In this document: positions 2,453-60,564 of the stretch, piece after piece | How the letters are laid out: every line of letters starts with the position of its first letter | Position numbering within the stretch: the first letter of the stretch is position 1 | DNA from: an uncultured Pseudomonadota bacterium | GTDB taxonomy: Bacteria; Pseudomonadota; Alphaproteobacteria; Rs-D84 | DNA length: 64,000 nt | Direction of reading: 5' to 3' | Assembly (NCBI GenBank): GCA_902801125.1 | Contig: CADCGT010000001.1 | Span: 16,637-80,636 of the forward strand | Made by a program: the position numbers and the translations under genes | Notes under the pieces: generated by a model | The model's database searches: none | The model's input: only the letters and a program-made list of their open reading frames with translations | Told to the model about the DNA's origin: nothing

Positions 2453-2558
2453 GTTAGTGGTTAGTGTTAGTGTTAGTGGTTAGTGGCCTCTGGAATTAGT
2501 TCGTAATTAAAAAATTATTCCAGGGTCTACTAACCACTTACACTAATCACTAACCACT
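2453..2558 (+). repeat. Heptamer-armed palindromic element, copy 1 (core 2489-2524)
   Basis: TAGTGGT/TAGTGT arm + TCTGGAATTAGTTCGTAATTAAAAAATTATTCCAGG + CACTAAC arm; contains queH stop. Confidence 0.95.
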
Positions 2559-3091
2559 CTGATACTGAATTCGCAACCGCAATAATTTTGGCGATAAAAA
2601 TCACTTTCACGGTTGATTTGTACGCGTAAATTCTCGTCCCATTTTATGGGCAAATATTCTGTATCGCCGGGCGCAGATTCACCGGCCGCGTCAACCTGAG
2701 CCTGGTCTTTGTGGCGCGACACGCCCAAGACAGATGCCACCGCGTTATACCCGTTTTCACGCGCAAATTTTTTTGCATATTCAAACCGATACGCAAAGCA
2801 AACACTGCACCGCGCACCGCGTTCTGGCTCGGCCTCTAGCCCGCGTACCGCCGCACGCCACGCGTCGTGGTCATATTCGCCGATTTTATATTTCACACCC
2901 AATTTTTCACAATATTTTACTTGTTCTTGCATGCGGCGCATATATTCATCGGCGGGATAAATATTCGGATTAAAAAACAAAACAATAAAATCATCAACAC
3001 CGGGAATTTCCCCGCATGCCAGTTGTTTTATCGCGCCCGCGCTGCACGGCGCACAACAAGATACTAAAACAAGTTTTATTTTATCTAACAT
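2543..3091 (-). CDS. queH: Epoxyqueuosine reductase QueH
   Basis: CCAPC, EPERGARCSVC, FYRQNYCGC motifs. Confidence 0.9.
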   Translation of the reverse strand: MLDKIKLVLVSCCAPCSAGAIKQLACGEIPGVDDFIVLFFNPNIYPADEYMRRMQEQVKYCEKLGVKYKIGEYDHDAWRAAVRGLEAEPERGARCSVCFAYRFEYAKKFARENGYNAVASVLGVSRHKDQAQVDAAGESAPGDTEYLPIKWDENLRVQINRESDFYRQNYCGCEFSIRVVSD

Positions 3092-3525
3092 TATTGTTCT
3101 TTACCGTATATATTGTTAAAAAATTCATAAAGTTTGTTAGGTAATACACCAGCATATTTTGGAAAAACTTGATATCCTTGTCTATTTAGCACCAAAATAT
3201 CTTTATACGGTTTTTGTTCCCTTTTCAAATTTTTCTGTATTTGTGTGATGGTTTCTTTTGCGATTGTCAAATCATTCGGAACAACATAAAATGTTATTTC
3301 CCGTTTTACACTGTGAATAACGGGGTACACATGCGGAACAAACCTGTCATAAAACTCTAATTTATATGATGCAATAACTTGACATGGGTTATTTATTTCC
3401 CGTATGTATCTGTATGGTGCCTCTCCGTTGCCATTCCAACAAAATTCGTTTATATATCTATGACCGGTTATGTCATATGCGGTCAAAGAAAAACCACTAA
3501 ACGAAGTGCCTATTCTATAATTCAT
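3091..3525 (-). CDS. Hypothetical protein, distant paralog of 3972-4562
   Basis: 144-aa ORF; C-terminal QVFPKYAGVLPNKLYEFFN motif; SD supplied by the metG-tail copy. Confidence 0.75.
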   Translation of the reverse strand: MNYRIGTSFSGFSLTAYDITGHRYINEFCWNGNGEAPYRYIREINNPCQVIASYKLEFYDRFVPHVYPVIHSVKREITFYVVPNDLTIAKETITQIQKNLKREQKPYKDILVLNRQGYQVFPKYAGVLPNKLYEFFNNIYGKEQ

Positions 3526-3532
3526 TTTTATT

Positions 3533-3609
3533 TACTCCTTGGTTGTTTCTAATTCAATACGTGTGAACAGATTTTCTGGCACGGTGAATTTTTCGCCTGA
3601 TTCGATTCT
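3533..3609 (-). repeat. Duplicated 3' end of metG (direct repeat of 4568-4644)
   Basis: 73/77 identical by manual alignment. Confidence 0.95.
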
Positions 3610-3622
3610 TTGTCATTTTTAT

Positions 3623-3934
3623 TTATCGACCATTAGATTTACAGGGATAATTTAACCAACCAGACAGACCACGATTATATTCATCCCAAACCACTATCCT
3701 GCGCAACCGGGTCCCGGTTTGTTTTTTGAATCCGTCGTGAAGATTTTTAGTCGTTGTTTCACGCGTTATAATTACTGGACCTAAACATCTTGTATAACAC
3801 AAATAAAGTTCAGATTGTATATAATCCAACATAATATCTTTTTCGATATCTTTAAACACCGCAACACGTTTTTTATTAGGAATATTTGTGTTTGATATAA
3901 TGGTGTATTCGGTATATTTTACATTTTGCGACAT
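3623..3934 (-). CDS. Hypothetical protein
   Basis: 103-aa ORF with AAAGGA SD. Confidence 0.7.
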   Translation of the reverse strand: MSQNVKYTEYTIISNTNIPNKKRVAVFKDIEKDIMLDYIQSELYLCYTRCLGPVIITRETTTKNLHDGFKKQTGTRLRRIVVWDEYNRGLSGWLNYPCKSNGR

Positions 3935-3971
3935 GGTTTATCCTTTGTTTATAAACCTACATCTCTCTCGT

Positions 3972-4562
3972 TTAATGTACTTTTTCTGTGCCACGGTTAA
4001 ACAATTCCAACAAACCGACCGGCAAACTTCCCGTTTTTTCCGGCCAAATTTGATTTAGATGTTCATCCGTCACCGTATCTTTGTCTGACAACGGACGGTA
4101 CGATACCGTTTTCCATTTGATAATTGATGGCGCGCCAGTGGCGAAACTGCGCAAACCGATACTACCTGCGTTATGTACAGAAAATGTCATTGGCGTATTC
4201 ACCGTGCTTTCATCAGGTTTGAAATTTAATATTGAACCGTAATGTTCTAACAGATATTTTTTAATATCGTTTGGATATAATATTTTCGGCATAATAAATT
4301 CAAATGTTTCATCTGTCTCGGTCGCAATAATTGGATGACCATCGATATATTTATGTTGGTCACGCAAAGGAATTTTTTCAAATGTTTTATCCATATCAAC
4401 AACACAATTTTCGCAGCGAACAGTGACACGATATTGAACATCATTTGGCTTTCGTTCGGCAATAATCTTTTGTAAATCATCGACACCCGAAATATAATAT
4501 TCCAGGCTTAAAATCGGATTTTGTACGGATGCCTTAAATCTTGCAAATACATCTGGTTTCAT
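3972..4562 (-). CDS. Hypothetical protein (start MKPDVF)
   Basis: ATG 4562 follows metG stop with AAGGAG SD; C-terminal QIWPEKTGSLPVGLLELFN. Confidence 0.75.
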   Translation of the reverse strand: MKPDVFARFKASVQNPILSLEYYISGVDDLQKIIAERKPNDVQYRVTVRCENCVVDMDKTFEKIPLRDQHKYIDGHPIIATETDETFEFIMPKILYPNDIKKYLLEHYGSILNFKPDESTVNTPMTFSVHNAGSIGLRSFATGAPSIIKWKTVSYRPLSDKDTVTDEHLNQIWPEKTGSLPVGLLELFNRGTEKVH

Positions 4563-4566
4563 CTTG

Positions 4567-6192: not shown

Positions 6193-6218
6193 TTATGCGC
6201 CCCTTTGATTTTTTTATG

Positions 6219-6294
6219 AAAATGGGACGCAAACGGGGCGTCCCATGGAATCCCGTTTAATATTTTATAAAGATTATATTTGCATTCGTTTCAT
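6219..6294 (-). promoter_or_regulatory. Putative metG attenuator (leader MKRMQI, terminator/antiterminator)
   Basis: uORF 6294-6274; hairpin ATGGGACGC-CCCGTTT-GCGTCCCAT-TTT; upstream AAACGGG complementary to the loop. Confidence 0.6.
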
Positions 6295-6348
6295 TTTTTT
6301 ATTCTCTGGAACTTCGTCCGCCACACGAAGCATCACAAATGCGAAGTG

Positions 6349-6425
6349 TGGTGGGTGGTATTGGACTCGAACCAACGACCTTTACGATGTCAACGTAACG
6401 CTCTAACCAACTGAGCTAACCACCC
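6349..6425 (-). tRNA. tRNA-Val(GAC)
   Basis: GGGTGGTTAGCTCAG...TTACG-TTGACAT-CGTAA...GGTTCGAGTCC...ACCACCCACCA. Confidence 0.97.
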
Positions 6426-6451
6426 ATGTTCTTCAAGTGTTCTCGGACCGG

Positions 6452-6508
6452 GAACCAACGACCTTTACGATGTCAACGTACGCGGCTTCCCAACCGAACT
6501 AACCACCC
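6452..6508 (-). pseudogene. Degenerate upstream copy of tRNA-Val(GAC)
   Basis: 29-nt perfect match over anticodon arm to T-stem, decayed D-arm, no 3' acceptor strand. Confidence 0.8.
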
Positions 6509-6576
6509 AAACTCTTAGGCACCATTACACCCAAGGCAACGCGAATTATAACAAAGAATTTTTCAATTGCAAGTGT

Positions 6577-23664: not shown

Positions 23665-25277
23665 TGGCAAAATACGACAATAATTTTACAGACCAATTAC
23701 GCCAAAGGTTATCTGTGGTTGATGTTGTGTCGCGGCGTGTGCCATTGGTTAAACGCGGTCAAAATTATTGGGGATGTTGTCCGTTTCATAATGAAAAAAC
23801 ACCGTCTTTTTCGGTCAGTGAAGATAAAGGTTTTTATCACTGTTTCGGGTGCGGAAAACATGGCGACATTATTTCTTTTACAATGGAATCTGAACATGTT
23901 GATTTTAAAACCGCAATTGCCGAATTGGCCGATATGGCGGGATTAAAATTGCCGACATATAAACCAAAAACAAAACAACAAATTGAATCCGAAGAATCGT
24001 ATATAACCATAACGGCGGCCGCGGCCAAGATTTACGCCGAAAAATTATTTTCACCCGATGGTGCGCATGCGTTGGAATACGTGCGTCGCCGCGGTTTTAG
24101 TGATGAAATGATAAAAAAATATGGCATCGGGTATGCACCAAAAAATAATATTATTTCAAATAAATTTGCGAATATTAAACAAGAAAAAGTTATTGCGACG
24201 GGACTTGTCCGGCGCGGTGATTACGGGTTGTATGATTTCTTTCGTGATAAATTGATGTTTCCTATTTTTAATGCACACGGTCAAATTGTTGCATTTTCCG
24301 GGCGTTCATTGGATGGGTCCGAACCAAAATATATAAATACAACCGATACAGAAATGTTTCATAAACGGCAAACTCTGTTCGGGTTTAATTTTGCACGCGA
24401 ATCTATTCATCGTGCAAACCGCGCAATTATTGTCGAAGGTCAAATTGACGCAATTCAAATGCAATGTCATGGTTTTGGTGAAACGGTTGCGCCACTTGGC
24501 ACCGCATTGACCGAAGACCACATTGCAATTCTGTGCAAGGCAAACAGAAATATTATTTTCTGTTTTGATGGTGATGGGGCGGGGCAAAAGGCCGCCGCGC
24601 GTGCATGTGGTATTATTTTACCATTCTTGCGTGATAATTCTGATGTGCGTTTTGCGTTTGTGACGGGCGGCAAAGACCCAGATGAAGTATTGAAAAATGG
24701 TGGCCCGGGCGAGATGAAAAAAATTATAGATTCGGCGACGCCATTGGTTGATTTTTTATGGAATATTACAAATAAAAACTATTTAATAAATACACCGGCC
24801 GGTCGGGTCCAGGCGGAAAAATTTATCAAAACAAATACCGATAAAATAACCGATAAAATGTTGCGCGCAGAATATGAACGCGAATATAATAATCGTAAAT
24901 TTAATGAATGGCATAAATGGAAAAAAAATTCGGATACGGTAAATATTGATGTCCCGGAAATAGATAACATTATTAAAAACACACTTGTTTATATTGTAAA
25001 TAAATTTCCATCGGTTGCCGAACGATACGGTGATTTTATATCAAAATTTAATCTTGATTTAGATTCAGATGTCAAAGTTGATTTTGATATGGATTTAAAA
25101 TCTGCGGAAAAATATATAATCACTTTAAAGATACAAAAATATATGGAAAGTTTAGAAAAACAAAAACATGATTTAATGGTGCGCGGACTTTCGGGCGAAA
25201 GTGATGTAAGCCAAGAAATCCGCCGTATAGACGATGAAATAAACCGCATGAGAGAGAAGTTCGATTTGTTAGTGTAA
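23664..25277 (+). CDS. dnaG: DNA primase
   Basis: CPFHNEKTPSF Zn finger, PKYIN, VEGQID, FDGDGAG. Confidence 0.97.
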   Translation: MAKYDNNFTDQLRQRLSVVDVVSRRVPLVKRGQNYWGCCPFHNEKTPSFSVSEDKGFYHCFGCGKHGDIISFTMESEHVDFKTAIAELADMAGLKLPTYKPKTKQQIESEESYITITAAAAKIYAEKLFSPDGAHALEYVRRRGFSDEMIKKYGIGYAPKNNIISNKFANIKQEKVIATGLVRRGDYGLYDFFRDKLMFPIFNAHGQIVAFSGRSLDGSEPKYINTTDTEMFHKRQTLFGFNFARESIHRANRAIIVEGQIDAIQMQCHGFGETVAPLGTALTEDHIAILCKANRNIIFCFDGDGAGQKAAARACGIILPFLRDNSDVRFAFVTGGKDPDEVLKNGGPGEMKKIIDSATPLVDFLWNITNKNYLINTPAGRVQAEKFIKTNTDKITDKMLRAEYEREYNNRKFNEWHKWKKNSDTVNIDVPEIDNIIKNTLVYIVNKFPSVAERYGDFISKFNLDLDSDVKVDFDMDLKSAEKYIITLKIQKYMESLEKQKHDLMVRGLSGESDVSQEIRRIDDEINRMREKFDLLV

Positions 25278-25397
25278 GTGGTTATAGTGTTAGTGGTTAG
25301 TGGATAGTGGTTAGTGATTGGTGGCCTCTGGAATAAATTCAGAATTGCAAAATTATTCCAGATTCTACTAACCACTTACACTAGCCACTAACCACTA
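25268..25397 (+). repeat. Heptamer-armed palindromic element, copy 2 (core 25327-25362)
   Basis: Same architecture; holds stops of both convergent genes. Confidence 0.95.
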
Positions 25398-26000
25398 TAA
25401 ACACAATTTTAATTCGTGGTTGTCTTCGTTTTGGTCGATGCGTTTGTTACGAATTTCCATTGCCGCATTTATTTTTTGCTTCATTAAAATACTTTCAGAA
25501 TGTTCAGACATTTTTTGATTTATATCGCCAATCGCAAATTCTATTTCATCGCGCGAAGATACAAATATTGGCATTACAGAATTTGCAGAATTAAATACAG
25601 AATTCTTTATATCGGTTTCTAAATCGTCTATGACCGATAAATATGCATCTATGTGTTTTTTTTCGTGATTTAATATCGCATTATATTCACATGAATTTGG
25701 TTGATGCGAACCATCTATCTTTATCGAAAAATCATTATAACCAATCAATGCGTCCACAGATTTTAATACAACACAAAATCCGCCGTCGGATGAAAATATA
25801 TCAACGGCAATATCATAATCTTCGACCAATGTTGCGACAACATTTGCATGAAATTTATCCATTGGTTCGTTTGATGACGCAACCGATGTTTTATACACCG
25901 GTTTTAATATATTTATTTCCGGTATTTTTTTATATTCAACGCAATTATTTGCATATGCGCAAAATGGAATAAATAAAAAACAGATTATTTTTTTTAACAT
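25395..26000 (-). CDS. Secreted protein with HExxH motif, possible Zn peptidase
   Basis: Signal peptide MLKKIICFLFIPFCAYA; ILNHEKKH; directly follows virB4. Confidence 0.7.
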   Translation of the reverse strand: MLKKIICFLFIPFCAYANNCVEYKKIPEINILKPVYKTSVASSNEPMDKFHANVVATLVEDYDIAVDIFSSDGGFCVVLKSVDALIGYNDFSIKIDGSHQPNSCEYNAILNHEKKHIDAYLSVIDDLETDIKNSVFNSANSVMPIFVSSRDEIEFAIGDINQKMSEHSESILMKQKINAAMEIRNKRIDQNEDNHELKLCL

Positions 26001-26001
26001 G

Positions 26002-29956: not shown

Positions 29957-31036
29957 ATGGGTTTCAATTGTGGAATTGTTGGTTTGCCAAATGTAGGAAA
30001 ATCGACACTGTTTAATGCCTTGACGCAAAGTGCCGCGGCGGATGCGCAAAATTATCCGTTTTGTACCATTGAACCGAATACCGGGCGTGTGGTTGTACCG
30101 GATGAAACACTGCATAAATTGGCGGCGGTTGACAATTCGGCCAAGATTATACCGACACAATTGGAAATTGTTGATATTGCGGGACTTGTGCGCGGGGCAT
30201 CGACCGGTGAAGGTTTGGGTAATAAATTTTTGGGTAATATTTTGGAAACCGACGCAATTATTCATGTGGTAAGGTGTTTTGAAAACGATGATATTGTCCA
30301 TGTTGACGGCCGTATAGACCCAATTAGTGATATCGAAACAATCGAAACAGAACTTATGTTGGCGGATTTGGAAAGTTTAGCAAAACAGATTAAAAACCTT
30401 GAAAAAAAAGCACATGGTTTGGACAAAGTTGCTATAAAATTATTGGCCGATGCAAATGTAATCAAAGAAAACCTTGAAAAATCGGTGCCGGCACGGGATT
30501 CGGGTGTTGATACAAAACCGTTTAATTTATTGACCGCAAAACCGGTTATATATGTATGTAATGTGGACGAGGCCGCGGCCGCCAACGGAAACAAATTTTC
30601 ACAAATGGTTGTTGATAAATTTGCTGGTAAAAGTCCGGTTTTAATTATATCCGGAAAAATAGAGATGGAAATTGCGCAAATTATTGACCCGGCGGAACGC
30701 AAAATGTTCTTGGATGATTTAGGGTTGAAACAATCGGGGTTAGAGCAGGTTATCAAGACCGGGTATGAAACATTGGGACTGCAAACATTTTATACTGTTG
30801 GCCCGAAAGAGGCGCACGCCTGGACAATTTTGCGCGGTATGACCGCACCCCAGGCGGCCGGTAAAATTCATACAGATTTTGAACGTGGTTTTATTCGTGC
30901 AGAAGTTATTTCCCCAGATGATTATATAAAATATGGTGGCGAAGTTGCGGTAAAAGAGGCGGGTAAAATGCGCCTTGTTGGACGCGATTATGTTATGCAG
31001 GAAGGCGACATTTGCCATTTCTTGTTTAATAATTAG
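29957..31036 (+). CDS. ychF: Ribosome-binding ATPase YchF
   Basis: GIVGLPNVGKSTLFNALT, NYPFCTIEPN, IHTDFERGFIRAE. Confidence 0.98.
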   Translation: MGFNCGIVGLPNVGKSTLFNALTQSAAADAQNYPFCTIEPNTGRVVVPDETLHKLAAVDNSAKIIPTQLEIVDIAGLVRGASTGEGLGNKFLGNILETDAIIHVVRCFENDDIVHVDGRIDPISDIETIETELMLADLESLAKQIKNLEKKAHGLDKVAIKLLADANVIKENLEKSVPARDSGVDTKPFNLLTAKPVIYVCNVDEAAAANGNKFSQMVVDKFAGKSPVLIISGKIEMEIAQIIDPAERKMFLDDLGLKQSGLEQVIKTGYETLGLQTFYTVGPKEAHAWTILRGMTAPQAAGKIHTDFERGFIRAEVISPDDYIKYGGEVAVKEAGKMRLVGRDYVMQEGDICHFLFNN

Positions 31037-31153
31037 TGGTTAGTGTTAGTGGATAGTGGTTAGTGATTGGTGGCCTCTGGAATAAATTCAGAATTGCAAA
31101 ATTATTCCAGAATCTACTAACCACTAACACTAACCACTAACACTCGTCACTAA
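31033..31153 (+). repeat. Heptamer-armed palindromic element, copy 3 (core 31076-31111)
   Basis: Starts at ychF TAG; nearly identical to copy 2. Confidence 0.95.
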
Positions 31154-41166: not shown

Positions 41167-42816
41167 GTGGCGCAAAAAATGAAAAGTGCAAGTAAAAAAA
41201 TCTTGGACGAAGTGGTGTATTCTAAACAACCGTCTGTGCCGGCGGGATTGGAACATGCCGATAACAAAGAAATTGTTGAATATTTGTTTTCGGAAAACAA
41301 TCATTTGTTGACAGCGGTCGGTGGTGAATTTGAATTACCAAAAGAAACGCAAGGCCTGTTGGCGTATTTTTCGGGTGGATGTTTGATTGTTTCGCGCACA
41401 CATCGATATGATGGACGCGTGTTGGCGTTTATGGATTTGCTGCGTAAAAAAAATCGGCCTATGCGGATTCCGTTTTATTCAGATTTGGGTTTGGTGTCGG
41501 CGATATATAAATACTATGAAAATAATTTGGGTGATGGAAATCGGTCGCGTCTTGATTACAACAACCAAATGCAGAAAGATTTTGTCGATATTGTCGCGCG
41601 TGCCGCCGCACAAAAAGTGTCGGATATTCATATCGAAGTTGCAGATCAAACAACAATATATTTCCGTATAGACGGCAGTATGCAACCAGTATTGGAATTT
41701 AATTCGGGTTGGGGTGAATCTTTTGTTCGTGCCGCGTTCGCGTCCGCCGATATCTCAAATGCAAACTATGCGCAAAACGAATACCAATCGGCCCAGAAAG
41801 ATGGGCGAACGCCACTGCGTGGAACCAAAGATTTATACTTGCCCCAGGGTGTGTTGAGTATTCGTATGCAATTTAATCCAATTGCGTTCGGGTCGCGATA
41901 TGTGGTTATGCGATTGCTTTATGATAACCCGTCGGAAAGTATTACAACCGAACAAGAATTTGGAAAATATGAACAAATATTGCTGCGCCGGTTGCGTTCG
42001 TTTCCAACGGGATTGGTTGTGGTCGCCGGTCCAACAAGTTCGGGTAAATCAACAACATTGGTTCGTAATATGGTGTTGATGTTAAAAGAACATAATTATG
42101 AAATAAACCTTATTACGGTGGAAGACCCGGTCGAACAAAAAATATTTGGTGCACACCAGATTCCAGTTATAAATACCACAAACGAAGAACAACGCGAAAA
42201 TGAATATACCGAGGCATTGGCCGCCGCATTGCGCAGTGACCCCGACACACTTATGGTTGGGGAAATTCGAACATTGGCCGCCGCCCAATTGACCGTCAAA
42301 GGTGCGTTGTCGGGGCATAATGTTTGGACGACATTGCACGCAAATTCTGCGATGGCGGCACTGGTGCGATTGTTGGATATGGGGGTCGAAGCATTCAAGT
42401 TAAAAGAAGAAACAATGATGCGTGGTTTGGTGTCTATGCGTTTGTTTAAAAGGCTTTGTCCACATTGCCGGGAAAAATTGTCGGCGCACCCGGAATACCC
42501 GGAATATGCGCGTGTGATGGACGCGTTTGGGGAATTGGGATTAAATCAGGTTTATGTTCGTGGACATGGGTGTGAACACTGTAATGAAACCGGAACATTT
42601 GGTCGTATCAAGGCCGGTGAAATTATTATAACTAACAGTGAATTTTTAAATCTGGCGTTGGCGGGAAATACCGATGCCGCCGTTAAATACTGGTTGGAAG
42701 AAATGGATGGGCGCACATTAAAAGAATCTGCGTGTGAATTGATGTTGCGCGGTATAATCGGTGTTGATGAATTGGAACGTTGGGTTGGACTTTTGGACCG
42801 GCCGGGGGTGTATTGA
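41167..42816 (+). CDS. Type IV pilus/T2SS assembly ATPase (PilQ/GspE family)
   Basis: SDIHIE, GPTSSGKSTT, TVEDPVE, LRSDPD..VGEIR, TTLHANSA, CxxC pairs. Confidence 0.92.
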   Translation: MAQKMKSASKKILDEVVYSKQPSVPAGLEHADNKEIVEYLFSENNHLLTAVGGEFELPKETQGLLAYFSGGCLIVSRTHRYDGRVLAFMDLLRKKNRPMRIPFYSDLGLVSAIYKYYENNLGDGNRSRLDYNNQMQKDFVDIVARAAAQKVSDIHIEVADQTTIYFRIDGSMQPVLEFNSGWGESFVRAAFASADISNANYAQNEYQSAQKDGRTPLRGTKDLYLPQGVLSIRMQFNPIAFGSRYVVMRLLYDNPSESITTEQEFGKYEQILLRRLRSFPTGLVVVAGPTSSGKSTTLVRNMVLMLKEHNYEINLITVEDPVEQKIFGAHQIPVINTTNEEQRENEYTEALAAALRSDPDTLMVGEIRTLAAAQLTVKGALSGHNVWTTLHANSAMAALVRLLDMGVEAFKLKEETMMRGLVSMRLFKRLCPHCREKLSAHPEYPEYARVMDAFGELGLNQVYVRGHGCEHCNETGTFGRIKAGEIIITNSEFLNLALAGNTDAAVKYWLEEMDGRTLKESACELMLRGIIGVDELERWVGLLDRPGVY

Positions 42817-42817
42817 T

Positions 42818-43888
42818 ATGACACGTTTGGAAATTTTTTATGCCAAAATGGTTTGCAGGTTTAGCAACGACAAACGTATTGCGATTTGGCGTAAATTGGT
42901 GTCTTTGTTGAAAAATGATTTTACATTGGTAAATGCACTAAATCGATTACAGATGATTGAATCGCACGGTGGTGCAAAACCAAATGAACCATTTGCAATT
43001 TGCCTGCGCGAATGGGAAAAAAACCTTGAACGCGGGATGAGTTTTTCCGAAGCCACACGCGGTTGGGTCCCCGCCGAAGAAACATTACTGTTGACAAGTG
43101 GAAATATGTCCAGTTTGATTGTAGCGTTGGAAAATGTTGGACGAATAATCGTCGCAAATAAAAGAATAGGGGGCGCGGTATTCAGTGCAATTGCATATCC
43201 GACATTGTTGTTGGTATTGGTGTTCGCAATTATAATTATGGTTGGACTTTATTTGGTGCCACCGCTTTCCGCCGTTGCCGGTGAAAATATGGTTTGGTCG
43301 GGTGGGGCATCATCATTGATATGGTTGTCAAATTTGGCGGGAAATTATTGGAAACCATTTATGGTTGCACTTGTGATTTTTGGTGTTTTTGTGTGGTGGT
43401 CTTTGCCGCGCCTGGCGGGGCGGGTGCGCGCGGTTATTGATAAATTGCCACCATGGAATATATATAAAATTCGTATGTCGGTTGGTTGGATGATGTCGTT
43501 GTCCGCCATGGTTGCGTCGGGTGTTGCGATACCGGATGCGATGCGTATGTTGGCCGATAATTCAAATCGGTATTTGCGACGGATATTAGAAGAAACATTG
43601 CATTATATCGCGAATGGTGATAATTTGGGTGACGCGTTGCAAAATACAGGTATGGATTTTCCAAACCAAGAATTGATAGGCGATTTAACAATCTATGCCG
43701 ATATGAATGATTTCGATACGAACCTGGGGCAGATTTCAAATGACTATTTGGAAAATTCCGTCAAGAAAATAGAGGCACTTGCCGAAACATTGAATACTGT
43801 TGGAATATTACTTATATCCGCGGTGATTGCGTGGATTGTCCTTGGCACATTCCAGATGCAAGACCAGATAACGGCGTTTTTGAGTTAG
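42818..43888 (+). CDS. Pilus inner-membrane platform protein (PilR/GspF family)
   Basis: AIAYP, three TM regions, LPPWNIYK; follows the ATPase. Confidence 0.85.
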   Translation: MTRLEIFYAKMVCRFSNDKRIAIWRKLVSLLKNDFTLVNALNRLQMIESHGGAKPNEPFAICLREWEKNLERGMSFSEATRGWVPAEETLLLTSGNMSSLIVALENVGRIIVANKRIGGAVFSAIAYPTLLLVLVFAIIIMVGLYLVPPLSAVAGENMVWSGGASSLIWLSNLAGNYWKPFMVALVIFGVFVWWSLPRLAGRVRAVIDKLPPWNIYKIRMSVGWMMSLSAMVASGVAIPDAMRMLADNSNRYLRRILEETLHYIANGDNLGDALQNTGMDFPNQELIGDLTIYADMNDFDTNLGQISNDYLENSVKKIEALAETLNTVGILLISAVIAWIVLGTFQMQDQITAFLS

Positions 43889-43986
43889 TGGTGAGTGTTA
43901 GTGGTTAGTAGATTCTGGAATAATTTTTTAATTACGAAATAATTCCAGACACCACTATCCACTAACCACTTGCACTAACCACTCTA
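43884..43986 (-). repeat. Heptamer-armed palindromic element, copy 4 (core 43914-43949, reverse orientation)
   Basis: Reverse complement matches copies 1 and 7; TAG stops of both convergent genes at its ends. Confidence 0.95.
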
Positions 43987-44556
43987 TACCATAAACGGCA
44001 GGTTTTCCAATGTGCCTTCGGCGACACGGACATTTACATCTATCATCATAAATACACAATCCGGACTTGCCGTCGCCAATTCTTGGTCAAATATGTGATT
44101 TGATAACAAGTGACTTGTATTCACGGAAATTTTTGTTATTAAATGGTCGTCGTCCAACAGAGTATAAATTGGCCCGATGTCGCGTGGAACATTTTGACCG
44201 ATTTCATGTTCGTTTTGTGGACAACGCAGGCCGTCAAATAATGTCTTGATGCGATTGTCAATGTCGGAACGCGGAACACCAATAATTTCTGGGTGCAACA
44301 TTTGGATGTCCAATTCTGCAATCAATTTAAGTTTTGGTGTAATAATCGGATTCCAATCTATACCGCCGATATGGCGTGTGGTAATCGGACTTTTGTTCGC
44401 ATTCGGTGCCATATACTGGGTAAGGTTATTCCACGGTTGATGTTCAACCAGTTTCTTTAATTGTGGGTGAAATTGCATACGGATGTCTGATATATGCTGG
44501 GCCCGCTTTTTGGGGTTGATTAAAATTTCACCAAAATACAGCAATTTGAATTTCAT
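43984..44556 (-). CDS. Hypothetical protein with RusA-like nuclease motif
   Basis: SDIDNRIKTLFDGL...LLDDDHLI. Confidence 0.7.
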   Translation of the reverse strand: MKFKLLYFGEILINPKKRAQHISDIRMQFHPQLKKLVEHQPWNNLTQYMAPNANKSPITTRHIGGIDWNPIITPKLKLIAELDIQMLHPEIIGVPRSDIDNRIKTLFDGLRCPQNEHEIGQNVPRDIGPIYTLLDDDHLITKISVNTSHLLSNHIFDQELATASPDCVFMMIDVNVRVAEGTLENLPFMV

Positions 44557-47315: not shown

Positions 47316-47316
<1 letters not shown>

Positions 47317-47969
47317 TGTTTGATGCAAAATGGTTTTTTGATTTAGAACGCAAAATAAAAGATTTGGGCGCGGACAGTGACGCCCAATCTTTTGATGAAA
47401 TTCGTGAAATGTTGGCACATCCGCGCAGACTTGCACCAGACGCGTTCGCAGAAATGTGCGCCTATGTAATCTTGGCGGGTGGGTTTTCACAAAAAACCGC
47501 AAAGCGGATTCATAAAAATATTATGGATTACATTTATAAAAATGGTGCGGATTTTGATGCGATTTTTCAAATGTTTCATAATAAAAATAAAGTATCTGCA
47601 ATTTGTAAAATATGGAACGAACGGTGCGCGTTGTGCGATGGGTTCTATAAATGTGAAAACGATGATGACCGGGTTGCGTACCTTGCAACATTGCCACATA
47701 TTGGAAAAATAACCGCGAATCATTTGGCGCGAAATTTGGGTGTAAATATCGTTAAATATGATGTTTGGATTCGGCGTTTGGGCGCGCAATACGCCGGAAT
47801 CCGCCGTATAGACGAAAATGGTAAATTGACGCCGGATGTAAAACGGGCGTGTGATGATATGTTCGCGCATATGGTTGCGGCGACCGGGCTTCCGCGGGGC
47901 TATATTGATGTTGTGTTATGGAAAGCATTACAAATTGGTTTGATAAAAGTGGATAGTGTTAGTGGTTAG
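47316..47969 (+). CDS. Helix-hairpin-helix glycosylase-like protein
   Basis: LATLPHIGKITANHLARNLG...KYDVWIRR; coupled to gyrB by TAATG. Confidence 0.75.
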
Positions 47970-48066
47970 TGCAAGTGGTTAGTGGTATCTGGAATTATTT
48001 TGTAATTATGAAATTATGCCAGATTCTACTAACCACTATCCACTAACACTACCCACTTACCACTAA
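47948..48066 (+). repeat. Heptamer-armed palindromic element, copy 5 (core 47988-48023)
   Basis: Encodes the last residues VDSVSG and stop of the upstream gene. Confidence 0.95.
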
Positions 48067-48084
48067 TTGAACGGAGTGAACGAT

Positions 48085-48750
48085 ATGGATGTGAAAATAG
48101 AAGAATCTTGGAAATCTGTTTTGGCGGATGAATTTGATAAAGATTATTTTATTAAATTGACCGATTTTGTGCGCGGCCAATATTTGGCGGGCAAAAAAAT
48201 TTACCCGGCGGCAAAAAATATCTTTAATGCGTTTAACCTGTGTCCGTTTGATTCTGTGCGTGTTGTGATTATCGGTCAAGACCCGTACCATGAACCAGGC
48301 CAGGCGATGGGCCTGTGCTTTTCGGTGCCTGACGGAATCACGCCACCGCCGTCGTTGGTAAATATTTATAAAGAAATTGAAAATGATTTGGGGCGCGCAT
48401 CGCAAACGCATGGTGATTTAACCAATTGGGCACGTCAGGGCGTTTTATTATTAAATTCTACGCTTACGGTTGCGGCGCATTTGGCGGCATCGCACGCGGG
48501 GCGCGGTTGGGAACAATTTACCGACGCGGTAATTCGGGCGTTGGCAACCCGGCGCGATGGTGTGGTTTATATGCTCTGGGGCAGTTATGCCCAGCGCAAG
48601 GCGGAATTTGTGGACGCGTCGCGTAATTTGATTTTGAAAAGCGTACACCCGTCACCACTGTCGGCACACCGCGGTTTTTTTGGTAATCATCATTTTAGTC
48701 GCGCTAATGAATACATAATCGCCCACGGCGGAAAACCAATAGAATGGTAG
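48085..48750 (+). CDS. ung: Uracil-DNA glycosylase
   Basis: GQDPYH, GVLLLN, HPSPLS. Confidence 0.97.
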   Translation: MDVKIEESWKSVLADEFDKDYFIKLTDFVRGQYLAGKKIYPAAKNIFNAFNLCPFDSVRVVIIGQDPYHEPGQAMGLCFSVPDGITPPPSLVNIYKEIENDLGRASQTHGDLTNWARQGVLLLNSTLTVAAHLAASHAGRGWEQFTDAVIRALATRRDGVVYMLWGSYAQRKAEFVDASRNLILKSVHPSPLSAHRGFFGNHHFSRANEYIIAHGGKPIEW

Positions 48751-48870
48751 ATAGTGGGAAGTGTTAGTGGATAGTGTTAGTGGTTAGTGGTTTCTGGAAT
48801 TATTTCACAATTACAAAATTATTCCAGAATCTACTAACCACTATCCACTTACACTAACCACTAACACTAA
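48748..48870 (+). repeat. Heptamer-armed palindromic element, copy 6 (core 48793-48828)
   Basis: Between convergent TAG stops. Confidence 0.95.
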
Positions 48871-49961
48871 ATCACACAATTTTTATAATCTGATTTATCG
48901 GTTTTCATCCAACAATCAACGCCCGAATATCGTTCCATTCGTGATTTGTTTATTTCCATGGCTGGGCTGCAAAAATCGGATGCGTTTTTATTGTAATATT
49001 CGCCTTTTTCGCATGTCACACATGTGCCGCCCGATGTTATGCCAGACCGAATATCAGACCCGCATGATATACATTTTGTTGAATCATCTGGGTCGACACC
49101 AAGCCCATCGCGACATTCAAAATATGTGCATGTTTCGGACCCATGACATATGTTGATAAATCCTGTATTGGTGCAATTTATCCCTTGTTTCTTGGTTTTA
49201 AGTACGTGAATTGTCGCATCATACTTATTCATATCATACCCGTCACACGCATTATAGTTTGTGGTATTTTGTGATTGGGTTGAACAATTTCCTGATTTTA
49301 CACATTTGTTGTCATTGACAATGTATCCGGTGGCGCACAGAATTATTGGATTTGACGATGCGCGTGCGCTTGCACCAAGGTTTGATACAGAAAACCGAAT
49401 CGGGGCAACGACAACACCATTTTCAACAAAATCTATGATACCAAGGGTGTCGGTATAATATGTTTGACCGTTTTGAATCGATGTACCGTATGTTGACCCA
49501 GAACCAAAAATATTTATACTGTATGTGATTGTTCGATTGAATCCAGTGAGTGTTTTAATGTTGCTTTGAAAAAATGATGTATAATCTGTGTCGTCACACG
49601 TGGTGTTGGTTGTTGTGGGGGTGTTGCAATCTGTGCCCTGATAGCCCGGTTTGCATATTGTTTTGCAATCGGATGTATCGCGTGCGTAATATACAAAATT
49701 GTCGTTTCCAAAAGAATAAGAATTTGTGTCATGTGATATGCGTATTGGGCAAAAATATCCACCGTTTTTATAAATGTTGATTGCAACAACGCCATTTATA
49801 TAACCACCAGTCGTGAAAAAAATAACATTGCTGTTTATTTGGCTGGAATACAGACCAGATACGTTCCATTCGGATTTATAGTCACTTCGTATCACACATA
49901 ATGCCTGTGATATAAATGAAAATGATACAAAAACACCAACAAAAAATTTTTTCAACAACAT
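48867..49961 (-). CDS. Cysteine-rich secreted protein
   Basis: Signal peptide; many Cys in C..GY motifs. Confidence 0.85.
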   Translation of the reverse strand: MLLKKFFVGVFVSFSFISQALCVIRSDYKSEWNVSGLYSSQINSNVIFFTTGGYINGVVAINIYKNGGYFCPIRISHDTNSYSFGNDNFVYYARDTSDCKTICKPGYQGTDCNTPTTTNTTCDDTDYTSFFQSNIKTLTGFNRTITYSINIFGSGSTYGTSIQNGQTYYTDTLGIIDFVENGVVVAPIRFSVSNLGASARASSNPIILCATGYIVNDNKCVKSGNCSTQSQNTTNYNACDGYDMNKYDATIHVLKTKKQGINCTNTGFINICHGSETCTYFECRDGLGVDPDDSTKCISCGSDIRSGITSGGTCVTCEKGEYYNKNASDFCSPAMEINKSRMERYSGVDCWMKTDKSDYKNCVI

Positions 49962-54552: not shown

Positions 54553-55572
54553 ATGAAGTGGTTGGTTTTGATAATATGTGCGTGTGTTTTGGTGGGGGTG
54601 GTGATTTGGCGTCAATCCAATTCATGGGATAAAGTTTTCCCGCGTGATGAAAATGTCACCGTCCAGAAAGTGCATTTCAAAAATCGCTATGGCATAGATT
54701 TAACCGGCGATTTATATATGCCAAAAAATAAACCGGATGCAAAATTGCCGGCAATCGCGGTGGCGGGGCCGTTCGGCGCGGTCAAAGAACAATCAAGTGG
54801 CCTGTATGCCACCGAGATGGCGCGTCGCGGTTTTATCGCGTTGGCGTTTGACCCGTCCTTTACCGGGGAAAGCGGGGGCGCCGTGCGATATGTGGCGTCG
54901 CCCGATATAAACACCGAAGATTTTTCCGCCGCGGTGGATTATTTGGCAAATCGGGTGGATGTTGATGCCGACAAAATCGGAATTATCGGAATCTGTGGTT
55001 GGGGTGGTATGGCAATAAATGCCGCCGCAATGGATACACGCATTCGGGCGACCGTTGCGTCAACTATGTATGATATGACGCGTGTGACCGCAAATGGATA
55101 CTTTGACGCCGATGATAATGCCGATGCACGGTTTGCCACAAAATCGGCACTGAATGCGCAAAGAACACAAGATTATAAAAACGGTCGGTATGAATTGGCG
55201 GGCGGGGTGGTTGACCCATTGCCAGACGATGCACCAAACTTTGTCAAAGATTACTATGCGTATTATAAAACCCCGCGCGGATATCATAAACGTTCGTTGA
55301 ATTCTAATGGCGGATGGAATAAAACCAGTGCTTTGTCGTTTATGAATATGCCGTTGTTGCAATATGCCGATGAAATTCGCAGCGCGGTATTGCTTGTTCA
55401 CGGTGAAAACGCGCACAGCCGGTATTTTAGTGAAGACGCGTTCAAAAAATTAAAAGGCGATAATAAAGAATTACTGATTGTGCCGAATGCGTCGCATGTT
55501 GACCTGTATGACAATATGGAAAAAATACCGTTTGATAAAATAGAATCTTTTATGCGGGAAAATATGAAATAA
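54553..55572 (+). CDS. Alpha/beta hydrolase
   Basis: GPFGAVKEQ, FDPSFTGESGG, GICGWGG, HVDLYD. Confidence 0.9.
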   Translation: MKWLVLIICACVLVGVVIWRQSNSWDKVFPRDENVTVQKVHFKNRYGIDLTGDLYMPKNKPDAKLPAIAVAGPFGAVKEQSSGLYATEMARRGFIALAFDPSFTGESGGAVRYVASPDINTEDFSAAVDYLANRVDVDADKIGIIGICGWGGMAINAAAMDTRIRATVASTMYDMTRVTANGYFDADDNADARFATKSALNAQRTQDYKNGRYELAGGVVDPLPDDAPNFVKDYYAYYKTPRGYHKRSLNSNGGWNKTSALSFMNMPLLQYADEIRSAVLLVHGENAHSRYFSEDAFKKLKGDNKELLIVPNASHVDLYDNMEKIPFDKIESFMRENMK

Positions 55573-58009: not shown

Positions 58010-58173
58010 GGTGATTCCTTGGTAAATACAATAGGATTTTAATCGTAATATACTATATATTCAATAAATTTATGTCAATTATCGTTAAAAGTAAGTCCTA
58101 AAACAGGTCAGGGCGGTTTTTTACTTGATTTTTTTCCATATGTTCGTATAATTCGCCCGTGATTTTACGAATT

Positions 58174-58247
58174 GCCCTAATAGTCTAGTGGTAAAACACG
58201 TCCTTGGTAAGGACGAGTCGCAAGTCCGATTCTTGCTTAGGGCACCA
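58174..58247 (+). tRNA. tRNA-Thr(GGT)
   Basis: GCCCTAA...CGTCC-TTGGTAA-GGACG...TTAGGGCACCA. Confidence 0.95.
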
Positions 58248-58472
58248 GAAATATCCCATCTGATTTGCGTTTGTTGATTTTTGTTCGGGTCGTGTATGTC
58301 TAATACACTCCCGTCACAAGAATTGCACAATACGCATCATCTGGAACATTTCTGGCGCCCTGCGGGCACCACCCTTCGCGTCTTTGAGGCTTCATAAATG
58401 GTGTATATCGTGATACAGTTTTGTTTTCTAAATTGAAATCAGAATATGGGGCGAAATAAAAAATTATAGTGC

Positions 58473-58501
58473 TTGAAAATAATAAAATCTTGGTCTAGAA
58501 T
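58473..58501 (+). promoter_or_regulatory. Sigma70-type promoter for the aspS leader
   Basis: TTGAAA-17 bp-TAGAAT. Confidence 0.7.
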
Positions 58502-58509
58502 ACCGGAAA

Positions 58510-58684
58510 GTTTTGGCGGTTATGATGATGTGCCCAACAACCACGGAGTAATCGGCAAAACATTAAAAAAGTGATAAATTCGGGTGGCACCGCGCATAGC
58601 CAATATGCGCCCCGAAAGAGCATTAAAATAACATGGGTGCCAAAATTTCCTGGTTTTGTCGCCCAAAAAGTAAAAGGCGAAAAA
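58510..58684 (+). promoter_or_regulatory. T-box riboswitch, ultrashort stem I, translational type
   Basis: Antiterminator TTCGGG-TGGCACC-GCGCATA/TATGCGC-CCCGAA; K-turn stem I; alternative SD-sequestering helices. Confidence 0.85.
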
Positions 58685-60454
58685 ATGTTATCACTGAAAT
58701 CAAAATACAGAACACATACATGTGGTGAACTGTCGGCCAAAAATGTTGGTGAAACCGTGACACTTTCGGGCTGGGTCCATCGTAAACGCGACCATGGGTC
58801 GTTGCTGTTTATCGACCTGCGCGATAATTATGGAATTACACAGATTGTTATTGATGGCGGAAACGAGGATTTAGAACGCGTGCGCCCGGAATCTGTATTA
58901 CAGGTTGTCGGCAAGGTTGTCGCGCGTGACGCGTCCCAGGTAAATGATAAAATCCCAACCGGGGAAATTGAAATCCAGGTTGAATCTTGGAATGTTTTGA
59001 CATCAGCCGAGGTTTTGCCTTTCCAGGTTTTCGGCGATGAAGATACCAGTGAAGAATTACGGTACAAATATCGGTTCTTGGATTTGCGCCGTGAAAAATT
59101 GCATCACAATATTTTGATGCGCAACAAAATGATAAAATGGTTGCGCGATAAAATGTGGGATTTGGGATTTTCGGAATTTCAGACGCCGTTGCTTACCGCC
59201 GATTCACCCGAAGGTGCGCGCAGTTTCTTGGTTCCATCGCGTTTGCATCATGGTAAATTCTATGCGTTGCCCCAGGCCCCCCAGATGTTCAAACAATTAT
59301 TACAGGTGTCGGGTTTCGACCGGTATTTCCAAATTGCACCGTGTTTTCGTGATGAAGATTTGCGTGCAGACCGTTTGTTAGAATTCTATCAATTAGATTT
59401 AGAAATGTCTTTTGTTGATTTGCCGGATATTCAGGCCGTAGGCGAGGCGGTAATGCCGGAATTTGTGCGGACTTTTTTGCCGACGGCAAATGTATATCCG
59501 GAAATTCCACATATTTCTTTTGATGACGCGATGTTAAAATATGGGTCCGATAAGCCAGATTTGCGTAACCCGATTTTGATTTCTGATGTGACGGAAATTT
59601 TCCGTGGTTCGGATTTTGGAATCTTTGCGAACGCAATTGAAAATGGCGCCGTTGTGCGTGCAATTCCGGCCCCGAACAGCGCGGACAAACCACGTTCGTG
59701 GTTTGATAAACTTGGCGAATATGCCGTGAAAGAATTGGGGCTTGGGGGACTTGCCTATATCGTGTTTGGCGAAGAAGCCAAAGGTCCGGTTGCCAAGAAA
59801 TTGGACGAGGCAAGAATTGCGAAACTGCGCAATGTGGCCGGTGATAATTCTTCGTTGTTCTTTGTGTGCGACGCACAAGAATCGGCGGCCAAGGCGGCGG
59901 GCAGGCTGCGCAACAAATTGGGGGCAGATTTGGGTTTAATCAATGAAAACGATTTTGCGTTTTGTTGGGTTGATAATTTCCCGTTCTTTGAACCCGATGA
60001 AGAACGCGGTGGCGCACCGGCCTTTACACATAACCCATTTTCATACCCGATGGCAACATTGGAAGAATTGTCCACGCGTGACCCGTTCACGATTAAGGCG
60101 GCACAATTTGATATGGTGTTGAATGGTATGGAAATTTGCAGTGGGGGATTGCGCAACTATAACCCGGATGTTATGAAAAAATGTTTCGAAATCGCCGGTT
60201 ATCCAATAGAGGCGGTCGAAAAGAACTTTTCGGGCCTGTATACATCGTTCCAATATGGTGCGCCACCACACGGCGGGTGCGCGTTTGGTATCGAAAGACT
60301 TATTTCAGAAATTTTGGGTAATGGTGACAGTTTGCGTGAAATTGTCGCGTTCCCGGCGAACCAACGCGGACAAGATTTGCTTATGGGGTCACCAAACGAA
60401 GTTACCGAACAGCAACTGCGCGATGTGCATATTCAGGTAAGAAAGAAGAATTAG
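58685..60454 (+). CDS. aspS: Aspartyl-tRNA synthetase, probably non-discriminating
   Basis: YRTHTCG, RDHG, YALPQAPQ, FRDEDLRADR, GAPPHGG.AFG; true start MLSLK. Confidence 0.97.
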   Translation: MLSLKSKYRTHTCGELSAKNVGETVTLSGWVHRKRDHGSLLFIDLRDNYGITQIVIDGGNEDLERVRPESVLQVVGKVVARDASQVNDKIPTGEIEIQVESWNVLTSAEVLPFQVFGDEDTSEELRYKYRFLDLRREKLHHNILMRNKMIKWLRDKMWDLGFSEFQTPLLTADSPEGARSFLVPSRLHHGKFYALPQAPQMFKQLLQVSGFDRYFQIAPCFRDEDLRADRLLEFYQLDLEMSFVDLPDIQAVGEAVMPEFVRTFLPTANVYPEIPHISFDDAMLKYGSDKPDLRNPILISDVTEIFRGSDFGIFANAIENGAVVRAIPAPNSADKPRSWFDKLGEYAVKELGLGGLAYIVFGEEAKGPVAKKLDEARIAKLRNVAGDNSSLFFVCDAQESAAKAAGRLRNKLGADLGLINENDFAFCWVDNFPFFEPDEERGGAPAFTHNPFSYPMATLEELSTRDPFTIKAAQFDMVLNGMEICSGGLRNYNPDVMKKCFEIAGYPIEAVEKNFSGLYTSFQYGAPPHGGCAFGIERLISEILGNGDSLREIVAFPANQRGQDLLMGSPNEVTEQQLRDVHIQVRKKN

Positions 60455-60564
60455 GGTAGAGTGGTTAGTGTAAGTGGTTAGTGGCTAGTGGTGTCTGGAA
60501 TTATTTCGTAATTATGAAATTATGCCAGATTCTACTAACCACTAACACTCGCCACTAACACTAA
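60452..60564 (+). repeat. Heptamer-armed palindromic element, copy 7 (core 60494-60529)
   Basis: Between convergent TAG stops of aspS and the asmA-like gene. Confidence 0.95.

Follow-up and report, generated by a model that had tools for sequence, protein, structure and literature searches.

Stop-codon-anchored arrays of a 7/6-nt unit and plug-in palindromes in a ~1-Mb gut alphaproteobacterium: a possible lineage-specific intergenic mosaic

Bacterial interspersed mosaic elements (BIMEs) of E. coli and the Rhizobium-specific intergenic mosaic elements (RIMEs) of rhizobia are mosaics of inverted repetitive extragenic palindromes (REPs) around other motifs, with a central IHF site in the case of BIME-1/RIP, and roles in mRNA 3'-end protection and termination have been proposed for them. 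A second kind of intergenic repeat, formed by GGGAATC in Xanthomonas and by GGGGAYT in Nostoc/Anabaena (short tandemly repeated repetitive, or STRR, sequences), consists, according to the available part of Rehm et al. 2015 (PMC4692102), of degenerate tandem heptamers, ~2-7+ per array and ~90% intergenic, which lie on the coding strand within tens of nucleotides of the upstream stop codon or overlap it. The same part of that source describes 70-75 convergent pairs able to form stem-loops, finds that the arrays are not kept at the same genes between sister species, and proposes a G-quadruplex. Here we analyze a 64,000-nt stretch of DNA (the window, C1:16637-80636) from the genome of an uncultured gut alphaproteobacterium of ~1 Mb (G000; 969,765 bp in 7 contigs, 44% G+C, rated 94.9% complete), which carries seven copies of a composite element in which a 36-bp AT-rich palindromic core lies between inverted arrays of a degenerate 7/6-nt unit. 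Across the genome, such arrays are a class anchored on stop codons and not parts of a discrete element. Judged from its sequence, the system appears to be a variant of the Xanthomonas/Nostoc heptamer arrays combined with a BIME-like mosaic.

Like the Xanthomonas and Nostoc arrays, as far as the available text of PMC4692102 describes them, the arrays studied here are degenerate tandem heptamers that are intergenic, stand at stop codons, occur in convergent pairs, vary in occupancy and have no known enzyme. They differ in that they hold no G-tract of three or more (GG at most), alternate between 7 and 6 nt, very often have the stop codon as their first unit and belong to a ~1-Mb gut alphaproteobacterium; moreover, palindromic modules, the 36-bp core among them, are plugged in at a fixed phase, a feature not described in the part of PMC4692102 at hand. 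The composites resemble BIMEs and RIMEs in having inverted arms, an AT-rich motif between them with the look of a protein site, and mosaic combinations of modules, and they share the position typical of REPs and BIMEs, being intergenic and located behind genes in convergent and tandem spacers. Unlike BIMEs and RIMEs, however, their arms are tandem 6/7-nt arrays anchored on stop codons and not single 35-bp palindromes, there is no REP-associated tyrosine transposase (RAYT; no Y1_Tnp candidate in G000), and inspection of the core by eye revealed no IHF consensus.

A pattern for the core gave nine strand-matches at seven places in the window and none in 100 dinucleotide-preserving shuffles of it (Table 1). 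All seven copies thus stand where an earlier, sequence-only reading of the window had put them, and its description of the arms as degenerate 6/7-mers facing their reverse complements applies to every copy. The core is an imperfect palindrome, TCTGGAAT...AT(T/G)CCAG(A/G), and the left arm contains three to seven units of TAGTGG(T), TAGTGT, AAGTGG or GAGTGG, with the reverse complements of these units on the right. Cores are denser in the window than in the genome at large (7 against 1.06 expected from 16 cores in 969,765 bp; Poisson p = 1e-4), and near-identical pairs occur among them: E2 and E3 are identical in core and left linker, the cores of E5 and E7 are one base apart, and E1 resembles E4. 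The spacer consists of nothing but the element at E2, E4, E6 and E7, where the stop codons of both neighboring genes fall in or at its outermost units. As RNA, the seven elements form hairpins of 102-131 nt with energies of -43 to -58 kcal/mol (z -7.8 to -13.7 relative to 30 mononucleotide shuffles). The genes that flank them are ordinary ones (fabD, dnaG, ychF, ung, aspS, the gene of a PilC/GspF-like protein and conserved hypotheticals). Two further properties claimed for the family hold in part. The core length is constant in the window, but a 27-nt form is present elsewhere in G000 (C6:14479) and relatives have a 33-nt form and a 16-bp form, TCTGGAATATTCCAGA. Similarly, six copies are indeed forward and one is reversed, but the polarity consists only of a 5-nt variant of the left linker (GGYNT for AGAWT), and in 3 of the 12 distinct G000 copies listed the AGAWT/TTAGTAG form stands on both sides. 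In six of the seven window copies (E1 being the exception), GANTC, which CcrM of alphaproteobacteria has as its methylation motif, forms part of the right linker, CCAGAWTCTAC, and this may be coincidence. An 18-nt tail containing GGAG to the right of E5 has no repeats elsewhere.

Table 1. Positions of the composite elements E1-E7 and of other features discussed in the text (window coordinates unless a contig, C1-C7, or a locus, L161, is named; ORF, open reading frame).
Feature	Location	Left array	Core (orientation)	Right linker	Right array	Neighboring genes and remarks
E1	2453..2560	2455-2485	2489-2524 (forward)	2524-2535	2535-2559	Between two minus-strand genes; ORF 2543-3091 (-) extends 17 nt into the right arm
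E2	25268..25398	25270-25316	25327-25362 (forward)	25362-25373	25373-25397	dnaG (23664-25277, +) and ORF 25395-26138 (-); both stop codons within the arms
E3	31032..31153	31034-31065	31076-31111 (forward)	31111-31122	31122-31152	After the TAA stop of ychF (29957-31036)
E4	43884..43985	43886-43903	43914-43949 (reversed; pattern matches the minus strand only)	43903-43914	43953-43984	Entire spacer of convergent genes 42761-43888 (+, PilC/GspF-like) and 43984-44556 (-); outermost array units are both TAG stops
E5	47945..48066	47947-47984	47988-48023 (forward)	48023-48034	48034-48065	Between tandem genes 47316-47969 and ung (48067-48750); upstream ORF runs 23 nt into the array
E6	48750..48870	48752-48789	48793-48828 (forward)	48828-48839	48839-48869	Spacer of convergent ung (+) and ORF 48867-49961 (-)
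E7	60457..60564	60459-60490	60494-60529 (forward)	60529-60540	60540-60563	Between convergent aspS (58571-60454, +) and ORF 60561-63038 (-)
GC-rich module, CCGTC...GACGG	C2:300865; C2:347794; C3:5492; C5:41449; C7:55261					Examples in G000; ~16 more
~230-bp upstream region	C1:158390-158560; C1:183008; C2:352313; C2:363123					At least 25 G000 places besides the first
567-aa ORF	C4:26302-28002 (L161:607-2310)					In a stretch of 34-38% G+C
PilC/ComGB-like protein, ComEC, DprA	42761-43888; C1:104934-105749; C2:366779-367399					

Arrays were defined as runs of at least three arm units, and 72 of the 74 runs found in G000 were kept after exclusion of two unrelated ones (C2:155508 and C5:83894). 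Of these TTAGTGG/TTAGTG arrays, 44 stand alone and 28 form 14 strict left-right pairs, which we call composites, while a few of the arrays counted as lone have a core plus a short or degenerate second arm. The notion that the arms are the element's own parts did not survive, as most arrays are alone and the same arms flank quite different interiors. Using gene calls made greedily from the longest ORFs of at least 70 aa (915 ORFs, ~91% coding), we determined how the arrays are placed relative to genes. The 3' end of a same-strand gene is directly upstream of 52 of the 72 arrays (binomial p = 1e-4). For 40 arrays the start lies at -25 to +4 nt relative to the stop codon of such a gene, and 25 arrays supply this stop codon with their first TAG. 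Arrays contain 32 of the 156 TAG stops of the genome, in which TAA is the commonest stop (639 of 911). Along an array the 7- and 6-nt units alternate, and the TAG offsets read from the sequence (0, 7, 13, 20, ...) cover all three frames. The same anchoring is found in other species: in 110 loci, scored against same-strand ORFs of at least 80 codons, 67 of 159 arrays start at -25 to +4 of a stop codon, 28 of them exactly on it, compared with 13 of 159 in a mirror-image control (Fisher p = 1e-12). The relatives used in these and the following comparisons are not independent. TTAGTGG as such is not over-represented in G000, where its 208 copies (123 in arrays, 49 in coding DNA) rank it at ~1556 among heptamers; heptamers of the same composition have a median of 150 copies.

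The array layer extends across the genus in species-specific forms. A TTAGTGG 19-mer, allowing at most one mismatch, has 51 matches in G000 and 1-11 in 6 of the 24 other genus species sampled first, and in a named genome collection the arm 19-mer is found almost only in metagenome-assembled genomes of animal-gut Alphaproteobacteria/'Candidatus Enterousia sp.'. A second dialect of the unit, AAGTTCA/AAGTGCA, forms arrays in 54 of 151 genomes of the genus (for example 56 hits in G018, 52 in G020, 39 in G164 and 38 in G097, against 0-2 per strand for reversed-pattern controls) and has no hit in G000; both dialects have AGT at the same position of the unit. The sequence-only reading did not recognize the family as a named class, and this assessment stands: at gathering thresholds Rfam matches only five tRNAs in the window, a distant-mode blastn search with E7 finds no match in plasmids or phages, and searches of the literature for the arm sequence, or for 'Rs-D84' together with repeats, return unrelated papers only (in the case of the arm sequence, papers on eukaryotes). 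PMC12306168, which describes reduced-genome gut alphaproteobacteria (Ca. Enterousia), a group to which the host most likely belongs, makes no mention of repeats, palindromes or intergenic elements in the part available.

In contrast to the arrays, the core is confined to a small subclade. A loose pattern has 18 hits in G000, of which 16 are genuine (8 on C1, 7 of these in the window) and two lie in coding DNA without arrays; 13 of the 16 genuine cores sit within the 14 strict composites. Among the 151 genomes, an exact pattern finds 14 sites in G000, 9 in G090, 6 in G163, 5 in G055, 4 in G057, 3 in G155, 2-3 in G143, 2 in G085 and one in each of approximately three more genomes, the remaining hits being unrelated conserved coding sequence. 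A comparison of 31 distinct cores from G000 and the loci of relatives reveals two inverted 17-nt half-sites, CTGGAAT-WWNTTC-RYAA, with a nearly invariant outer heptamer and center. At positions 8, 10 and 14, complementarity to the partner position is limited to 11, 5 and 6 of the 31 cores, respectively; as these spacer positions do not covary, the inner core does not behave like a selected stem. It looks instead like a putative two-fold protein site with two unlike halves. The sequence-only reading had proposed a site for a dimeric protein or a tyrosine recombinase, and the two-fold appearance agrees with the former, whereas the recombinase is unconfirmed, the one integrase considered (see below) not being distributed with the core. 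In its symmetric form, GTTAGT|AGAWT-CTGGAAT...ATTCCAG-AWTCT|ACTAAC, the core stands at the same phase of the array as the GC-rich module described below, and its right linker, CTACTAACCACTA, is constant even where the left arm is another module.

The core is one of several interiors. A GC-rich palindromic module, CCGTC...GACGG, occurs in two subtypes of 33 and 36 nt and in ~21 copies, none of them in the window (27 pattern hits, those beyond the ~21 copies lying in coding DNA). It follows GTTAGT in 20 copies and a one-letter variant of it in three, and the array resumes behind it. In relatives, the arms also enclose other GC hairpins, a CACCCC...AGAGGGGAAC module, terminators plus half-cores, and small genes. 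CGTC-tagged REPs, mainly alphaproteobacterial, lie behind coding regions, sometimes within larger palindromes, and have no apparent dedicated transposase (PMC3733652, Di Nocera et al. 2013); the available part of that paper describes four families with stems of 8-9 bp starting with A or T and loops of 4-5 nt. The GC module, which starts with CCGTC and ends with GACGG, may be such a REP, although its stem and loop sizes set it apart from the published description as far as this is available, and the AT-rich core and the arrays, unlike GTAG- and CGTC-tagged REPs, which are imperfect palindromes of 20-40 bp, carry no such tag at a hairpin end. Four core-bearing IMG/VR contigs (L165-L168) contain an array, a GC module, a core and a second array behind one gene. 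All four represent one chromosomal locus of relatives, orthologous to C7:15196 of G000, where a lone array is found; they are thus no evidence for a phage link, and their viral label looks doubtful.

Composites are enriched between convergent genes, with 8 of the 14 in this position by automatic calls compared with 173 of 908 spacers genome-wide (p = 0.002), and E2 becomes the ninth once the ORF on its right is accepted by hand. All 14 are predicted to form long hairpins, with energies of -39 to -72 kcal/mol on the plus strand and -26 to -68 kcal/mol on the other (z -7 to -15 relative to mononucleotide shuffles), and no consistent strand bias of G-U pairs was seen in them. A GC hairpin followed by a T-run lies within 90 nt downstream of 23 of the 44 lone arrays (background, 229 of 911 gene ends). 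In this respect the composites differ from intrinsic terminators: at 12 of the 14, among them every copy in the window, neither strand has a GC hairpin with a T-run over a distance of 80 nt. Contigs of two RNA runs, X1 and X2, which come from poly-A libraries of one study, end in or beside E6 and E7, and this may be an assembly break at a repeat. As a separate observation, several copies of a ~230-bp repeated region with an inverted repeat (aaaaaaccaaggttt ... aaaccttggttt; Table 1) directly follow an array and a CCCGCGG terminator. This region precedes paralogous genes that start with a signal-peptide-like MSKKTLLFG... and look like a multigene family of secreted or surface proteins.

Occupancy of the sites was compared in 29 loci of genus relatives and in ~75 kb from each of the two closest relatives, G055 and G094. 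Both empty and filled orthologous sites, which the sequence-only reading had suggested looking for, were encountered across species and strains, and occupancy is not identical in all relatives. Of the 29 loci, 18 have both flanks of the E4 site. The spacer holds nothing but a plain bidirectional terminator in three of these, TAGTGG-type arrays in seven, inverted arrays of other units (AAAGTTC, AGAGAGCA, CTATCTATT) around a GC hairpin in five, and extra genes in three. The stop codon keeps its place throughout, being TAG wherever a TAGTGG array starts and TAA in the three loci with plain terminators and in all but one of the others without TAGTGG arrays. The flanks of E5 abut in 13 of the 29 loci, leaving a 16-nt spacer in the six that were aligned (G055 and G094 among them), while in G090 and G057 the site is filled with a composite that has the same kind of core. 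The E1 site is empty in G055. The E2 site has an 82-nt version in G055 and is empty in G094, and the upstream gene ends with GAATTATTGGTTTAA in G094 and with GAATTGTTAGTGTAA in G055; as the peptide ends ELLV* in both, the array enters the last codons and leaves the protein unchanged. At the E7 site, G094 has an ordinary bidirectional terminator and G055 two direct composites around a 57-aa ORF, whereas neither G055 nor G094 yielded a right flank for E3 or E6. At the E4 and E7 sites, then, the whole spacer differs between species, terminator included, and has been replaced rather than interrupted. The ORF at the E7 site of G055 belongs to a family of 55-57 aa (...EHEELLI.AILDFY.KHRGYRMTQKE...) with a ~250-nt leader, found in L151-L152 (G055), L111, L125, L127 and L132 and without a clear homologue in G000; in G055, two paralogous cassettes, at the E4 and E7 sites, are flanked on both sides by direct composite copies.

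The elements also vary between strains, as judged from assembled contigs, rather than reads, of the public runs X1, X2, X6 and X7. A 4748-nt contig of X6 is ~99% identical to the window (3 differing letters in 368 and 33 in ~2900) and skips 47953-48062, a 110-bp part of E5, the two sides of the joint having no letters in common; X7 has the same skip. In X7, 2287 other letters stand exactly between 43882 and 43985, the borders of E4. Indels of 14 bp, corresponding to two units, occur in the arms at 43951 (X6) and as an insertion behind 60558 (X2). Chimeric joints between cores (43921>48833 and 48037>60540) are most likely assembly artifacts. Away from the elements, contigs of X1, X2 and X7 skip 770 bp at 54556-55327 with four shared letters at the joint, a difference between strains by deletion or insertion within or next to the gene 54553-55572.

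The reading that we favor, giving it about even weight, is that these repeats are a lineage-specific mosaic of intergenic palindromes without a transposase of its own, standing where relatives have terminators. In this reading, the mosaic has two layers. In the first, genus-wide and with unit dialects that differ by species, arrays of 7/6-nt units start on or beside the upstream stop codon in sense orientation and run into a hairpin. In the second, GTTAGT is the constant point of the array behind which hairpin modules are plugged in; these comprise ordinary GC terminators, the CCGTC...GACGG module and, only in a small subclade, an AT-rich core of 34-36 bp. Where two convergent genes each have their own sense array, inverted arms result and the whole spacer becomes a hairpin of 90-140 nt. 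Such a composite hairpin may serve as an end structure of transcription units, for insulation, 3'-end protection or as a processing site. Host processes, namely slippage of units, deletion of palindromes, and gene conversion or template switching between arrays, could make, copy and lose the family, and no element-encoded enzyme would be needed. The sequence-only reading is partly borne out by this picture: the family is dispersed and non-autonomous, with no transposase in the window and five enzyme families absent from G000, but it does not behave as a discrete element. Its suggestion that the arms are rebuilt by slippage or templated addition agrees with the whole-unit 14-bp indels as regards slippage, while there is no reverse transcriptase in G000 for templated addition and nothing behind the label 'telomere-like'. 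Loss of mismatch repair was considered as a cause of slippage and rejected, MutS being present.

Several observations weigh against this favored reading. The flanking genes are tandem at four of the 14 composites and divergent at one, 13 of the 44 lone arrays have no same-strand gene directly upstream, and the underlying longest-ORF gene calls are crude. The letters that follow the composite hairpins are not T-runs, so these hairpins are not canonical intrinsic terminators (Rho is present in G000), and the RNA runs, being assembled contigs of a single study, cannot show RNA ends or strand. In addition, the clean 110-bp junction at E5 looks more like an enzymatic cut than slippage, and the conserved two-fold layout of the half-sites, which a mere hairpin leaves unexplained, points to a protein.

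Because the E5 indel is clean, some cores form near-identical pairs and the core looks like a protein site, a trans-mobilized core stays in play as a serious rival, possible though on the whole unlikely. According to this explanation, the core and its linkers form a non-autonomous mobile module that is moved in and out of the arrays at GTTAGT, the arrays being landing pads, by an enzyme supplied in trans; candidates would be a host Xer-type tyrosine recombinase or a gene that lies outside the assembly or is not yet recognized. In its favor, E5 is present or absent between near-identical strains without microhomology, near-identical cores are 6-41 kb apart, 7 of the 16 cores lie within 64 kb, counts are uneven within the subclade (for example 14 in G000 and 4 in G057) and the core is absent from most of the 151 genomes, the array phase and right linker are constant, and the 17-nt half-sites are conserved with spacers that do not covary, as in a protein site. 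Mobile elements with comparable outlines are known: miniature inverted-repeat transposable elements (MITEs) include the Correia elements of Neisseria, and eukaryotic foldback transposons have inverted arms made of short tandem repeats in variable number. The composites resemble MITEs in that they measure 100-140 bp, have inverted ends, give hairpin transcripts, are polymorphic for presence and contain no coding region; they resemble foldback transposons in having arms of tandem units whose number varies between copies. Unlike either, their arms mostly exist alone and are not faithfully copied from one composite to the next. Furthermore, unlike MITEs, they show no target duplication at E5, the single clean pair, and have no cognate rve, DDE_Tnp_1 or DDE_3 transposase in G000; the replacement of entire spacers, terminators included, at E4 and E7 likewise does not suit a mobile core.

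The search for an enzyme argues in the same direction. Searches for the families Y1_Tnp, rve, DDE_Tnp_1, DDE_3 and RVT_1 gave no match in the 94.9%-complete G000, and of the 151 genomes of the genus only 2 contain Y1_Tnp, in both cases as IS200-like genes that have neither TAGTGG arrays nor cores as neighbors. G000 does have two tyrosine recombinases of Xer size, which the trans-mobilization explanation could draw on. At Xer/dif sites, XerC and XerD bind two 11-bp arms that are separated by a 6-bp spacer; a comparison of the core with a dif sequence, made by eye only and not amounting to a test, showed no convincing likeness. A third protein, encoded by a 567-aa ORF, has a weak tyrosine-recombinase domain (24 bits, below the Pfam cut-off) and is probably the integrase of an integrated element. 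Full-length homologues are scattered in the genus (G014, G121, G108, G125, G083 and G120), and none of these six genomes has the core, which rules the protein out as a partner of the core by distribution. The integron recombination site attC ends in an inverse core, RYYYAAC, and a core, GTTRRRY; CACTAAC and GTTAGTG, compared by eye only, each miss this consensus at one or two positions. Unlike attC sites, the composites are dispersed behind housekeeping genes (fabD, dnaG, ychF, ung, aspS) and not in tandem cassettes, and the integrases detected in G000 are the two Xer-type proteins and the weak one, no search with an IntI-specific model having been made. An autonomous version, in which the same arms would flank an enzyme gene, had also been named by the sequence-only reading as something to look for. 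Where the 13 pairs of inverted arrays 200-2000 bp apart in the 110 loci enclose any ORF of at least 40 aa, these are, judged by eye and without a run against a family library, assorted small genes, with no recombinase or transposase recognized among them. One relative has a 121-aa ORF between inverted arrays (L069:6823-7188), which we take, by eye, to resemble the four-helix-bundle proteins of 23S rRNA intervening sequences.

A more far-reaching possibility, which we consider still more doubtful, is a fast-evolving, genus-wide system for marking gene ends, in which a protein would recognize both the lineage's heptamer, as RNA or single-stranded DNA, and the two-fold core, and would insert, copy and excise hairpins at GTTAGT.

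Less probable again is an explanation in which the arrays are signals in the 3' untranslated region of mRNA, read by a multimeric RNA-binding protein that couples the end of translation to the fate of the message, the palindromes being a by-product. The repeated UAG triplets of the arrays, 3-4 nt apart, resemble the sites of HutP and TRAP, and the sense orientation, the exact stop-codon anchoring in G000 and relatives, and the depletion of arrays from coding DNA (only 49 of the 208 TTAGTGG copies in a genome that is ~91% coding) are all consistent with such a signal. HutP and TRAP family members are nevertheless absent from G000 and no candidate reader protein was found in it, 20 of the 72 arrays are not behind a same-strand gene, and the right arms of composites between tandem genes are antisense. 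The AAGTTCA dialect, moreover, contains no UAG, and a reader protein would need to have co-evolved with the unit.

We regard it as very unlikely that the arrays are species-specific uptake signals for natural transformation. In Neisseria and Haemophilus, uptake sequences frequently come in pairs that form terminators, and related species have different dialects of them; the units here likewise vary by species and form inverted pairs behind genes. A PilC/ComGB-like protein, ComEC and DprA, a possible DNA-uptake machinery, are retained in the 0.97-Mb genome (Table 1); yet both ComEC and DprA are widespread among bacteria, 10 of 14 control genomes having the former and 11 the latter. Known uptake sequences are single, not tandem, and abundant inside genes, whereas TTAGTGG, unlike the DNA uptake sequences (DUS) and uptake signal sequences (USS), is not strongly over-represented and has few of its copies in coding DNA.

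Least probable of all is that the arrays act by sequence content alone, as three-frame stop traps (there is a TAG in all three frames within three units, and 25 arrays of G000 and 28 of relatives provide the stop codon with their first in-frame TAG) or as G-quadruplexes (to which Rehm et al., in the available part of their paper, tie heptamer arrays near stops), because the AAGTTCA/AAGTGCA dialect occupies the same kind of site without regular stop codons or G-runs, so that neither explanation can be general, and because the unit keeps GTGG as well as TAG, with G-runs two long at most.

Genomes of ~1 Mb usually lose repeats, whereas G000 contains 72 arrays and at least three families of palindromic modules that turn over between species and strains. 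Together with the dialects of sister species, the anchoring on stop codons makes this genus a comparative system for how heptamer arrays and REP-like mosaics arise and act. On a practical level, the elements account for breaks and chimeric joins in metagenome assemblies of the group and can be used as strain markers. If they do replace terminators, this bears on operon prediction in an abundant uncultured lineage of the livestock gut; and if the gene-end marking system outlined above proved true, it would be a case of palindromes propagating independently of a transposase, seeded at stop codons, in a 1-Mb genome that is otherwise shedding non-essential DNA.

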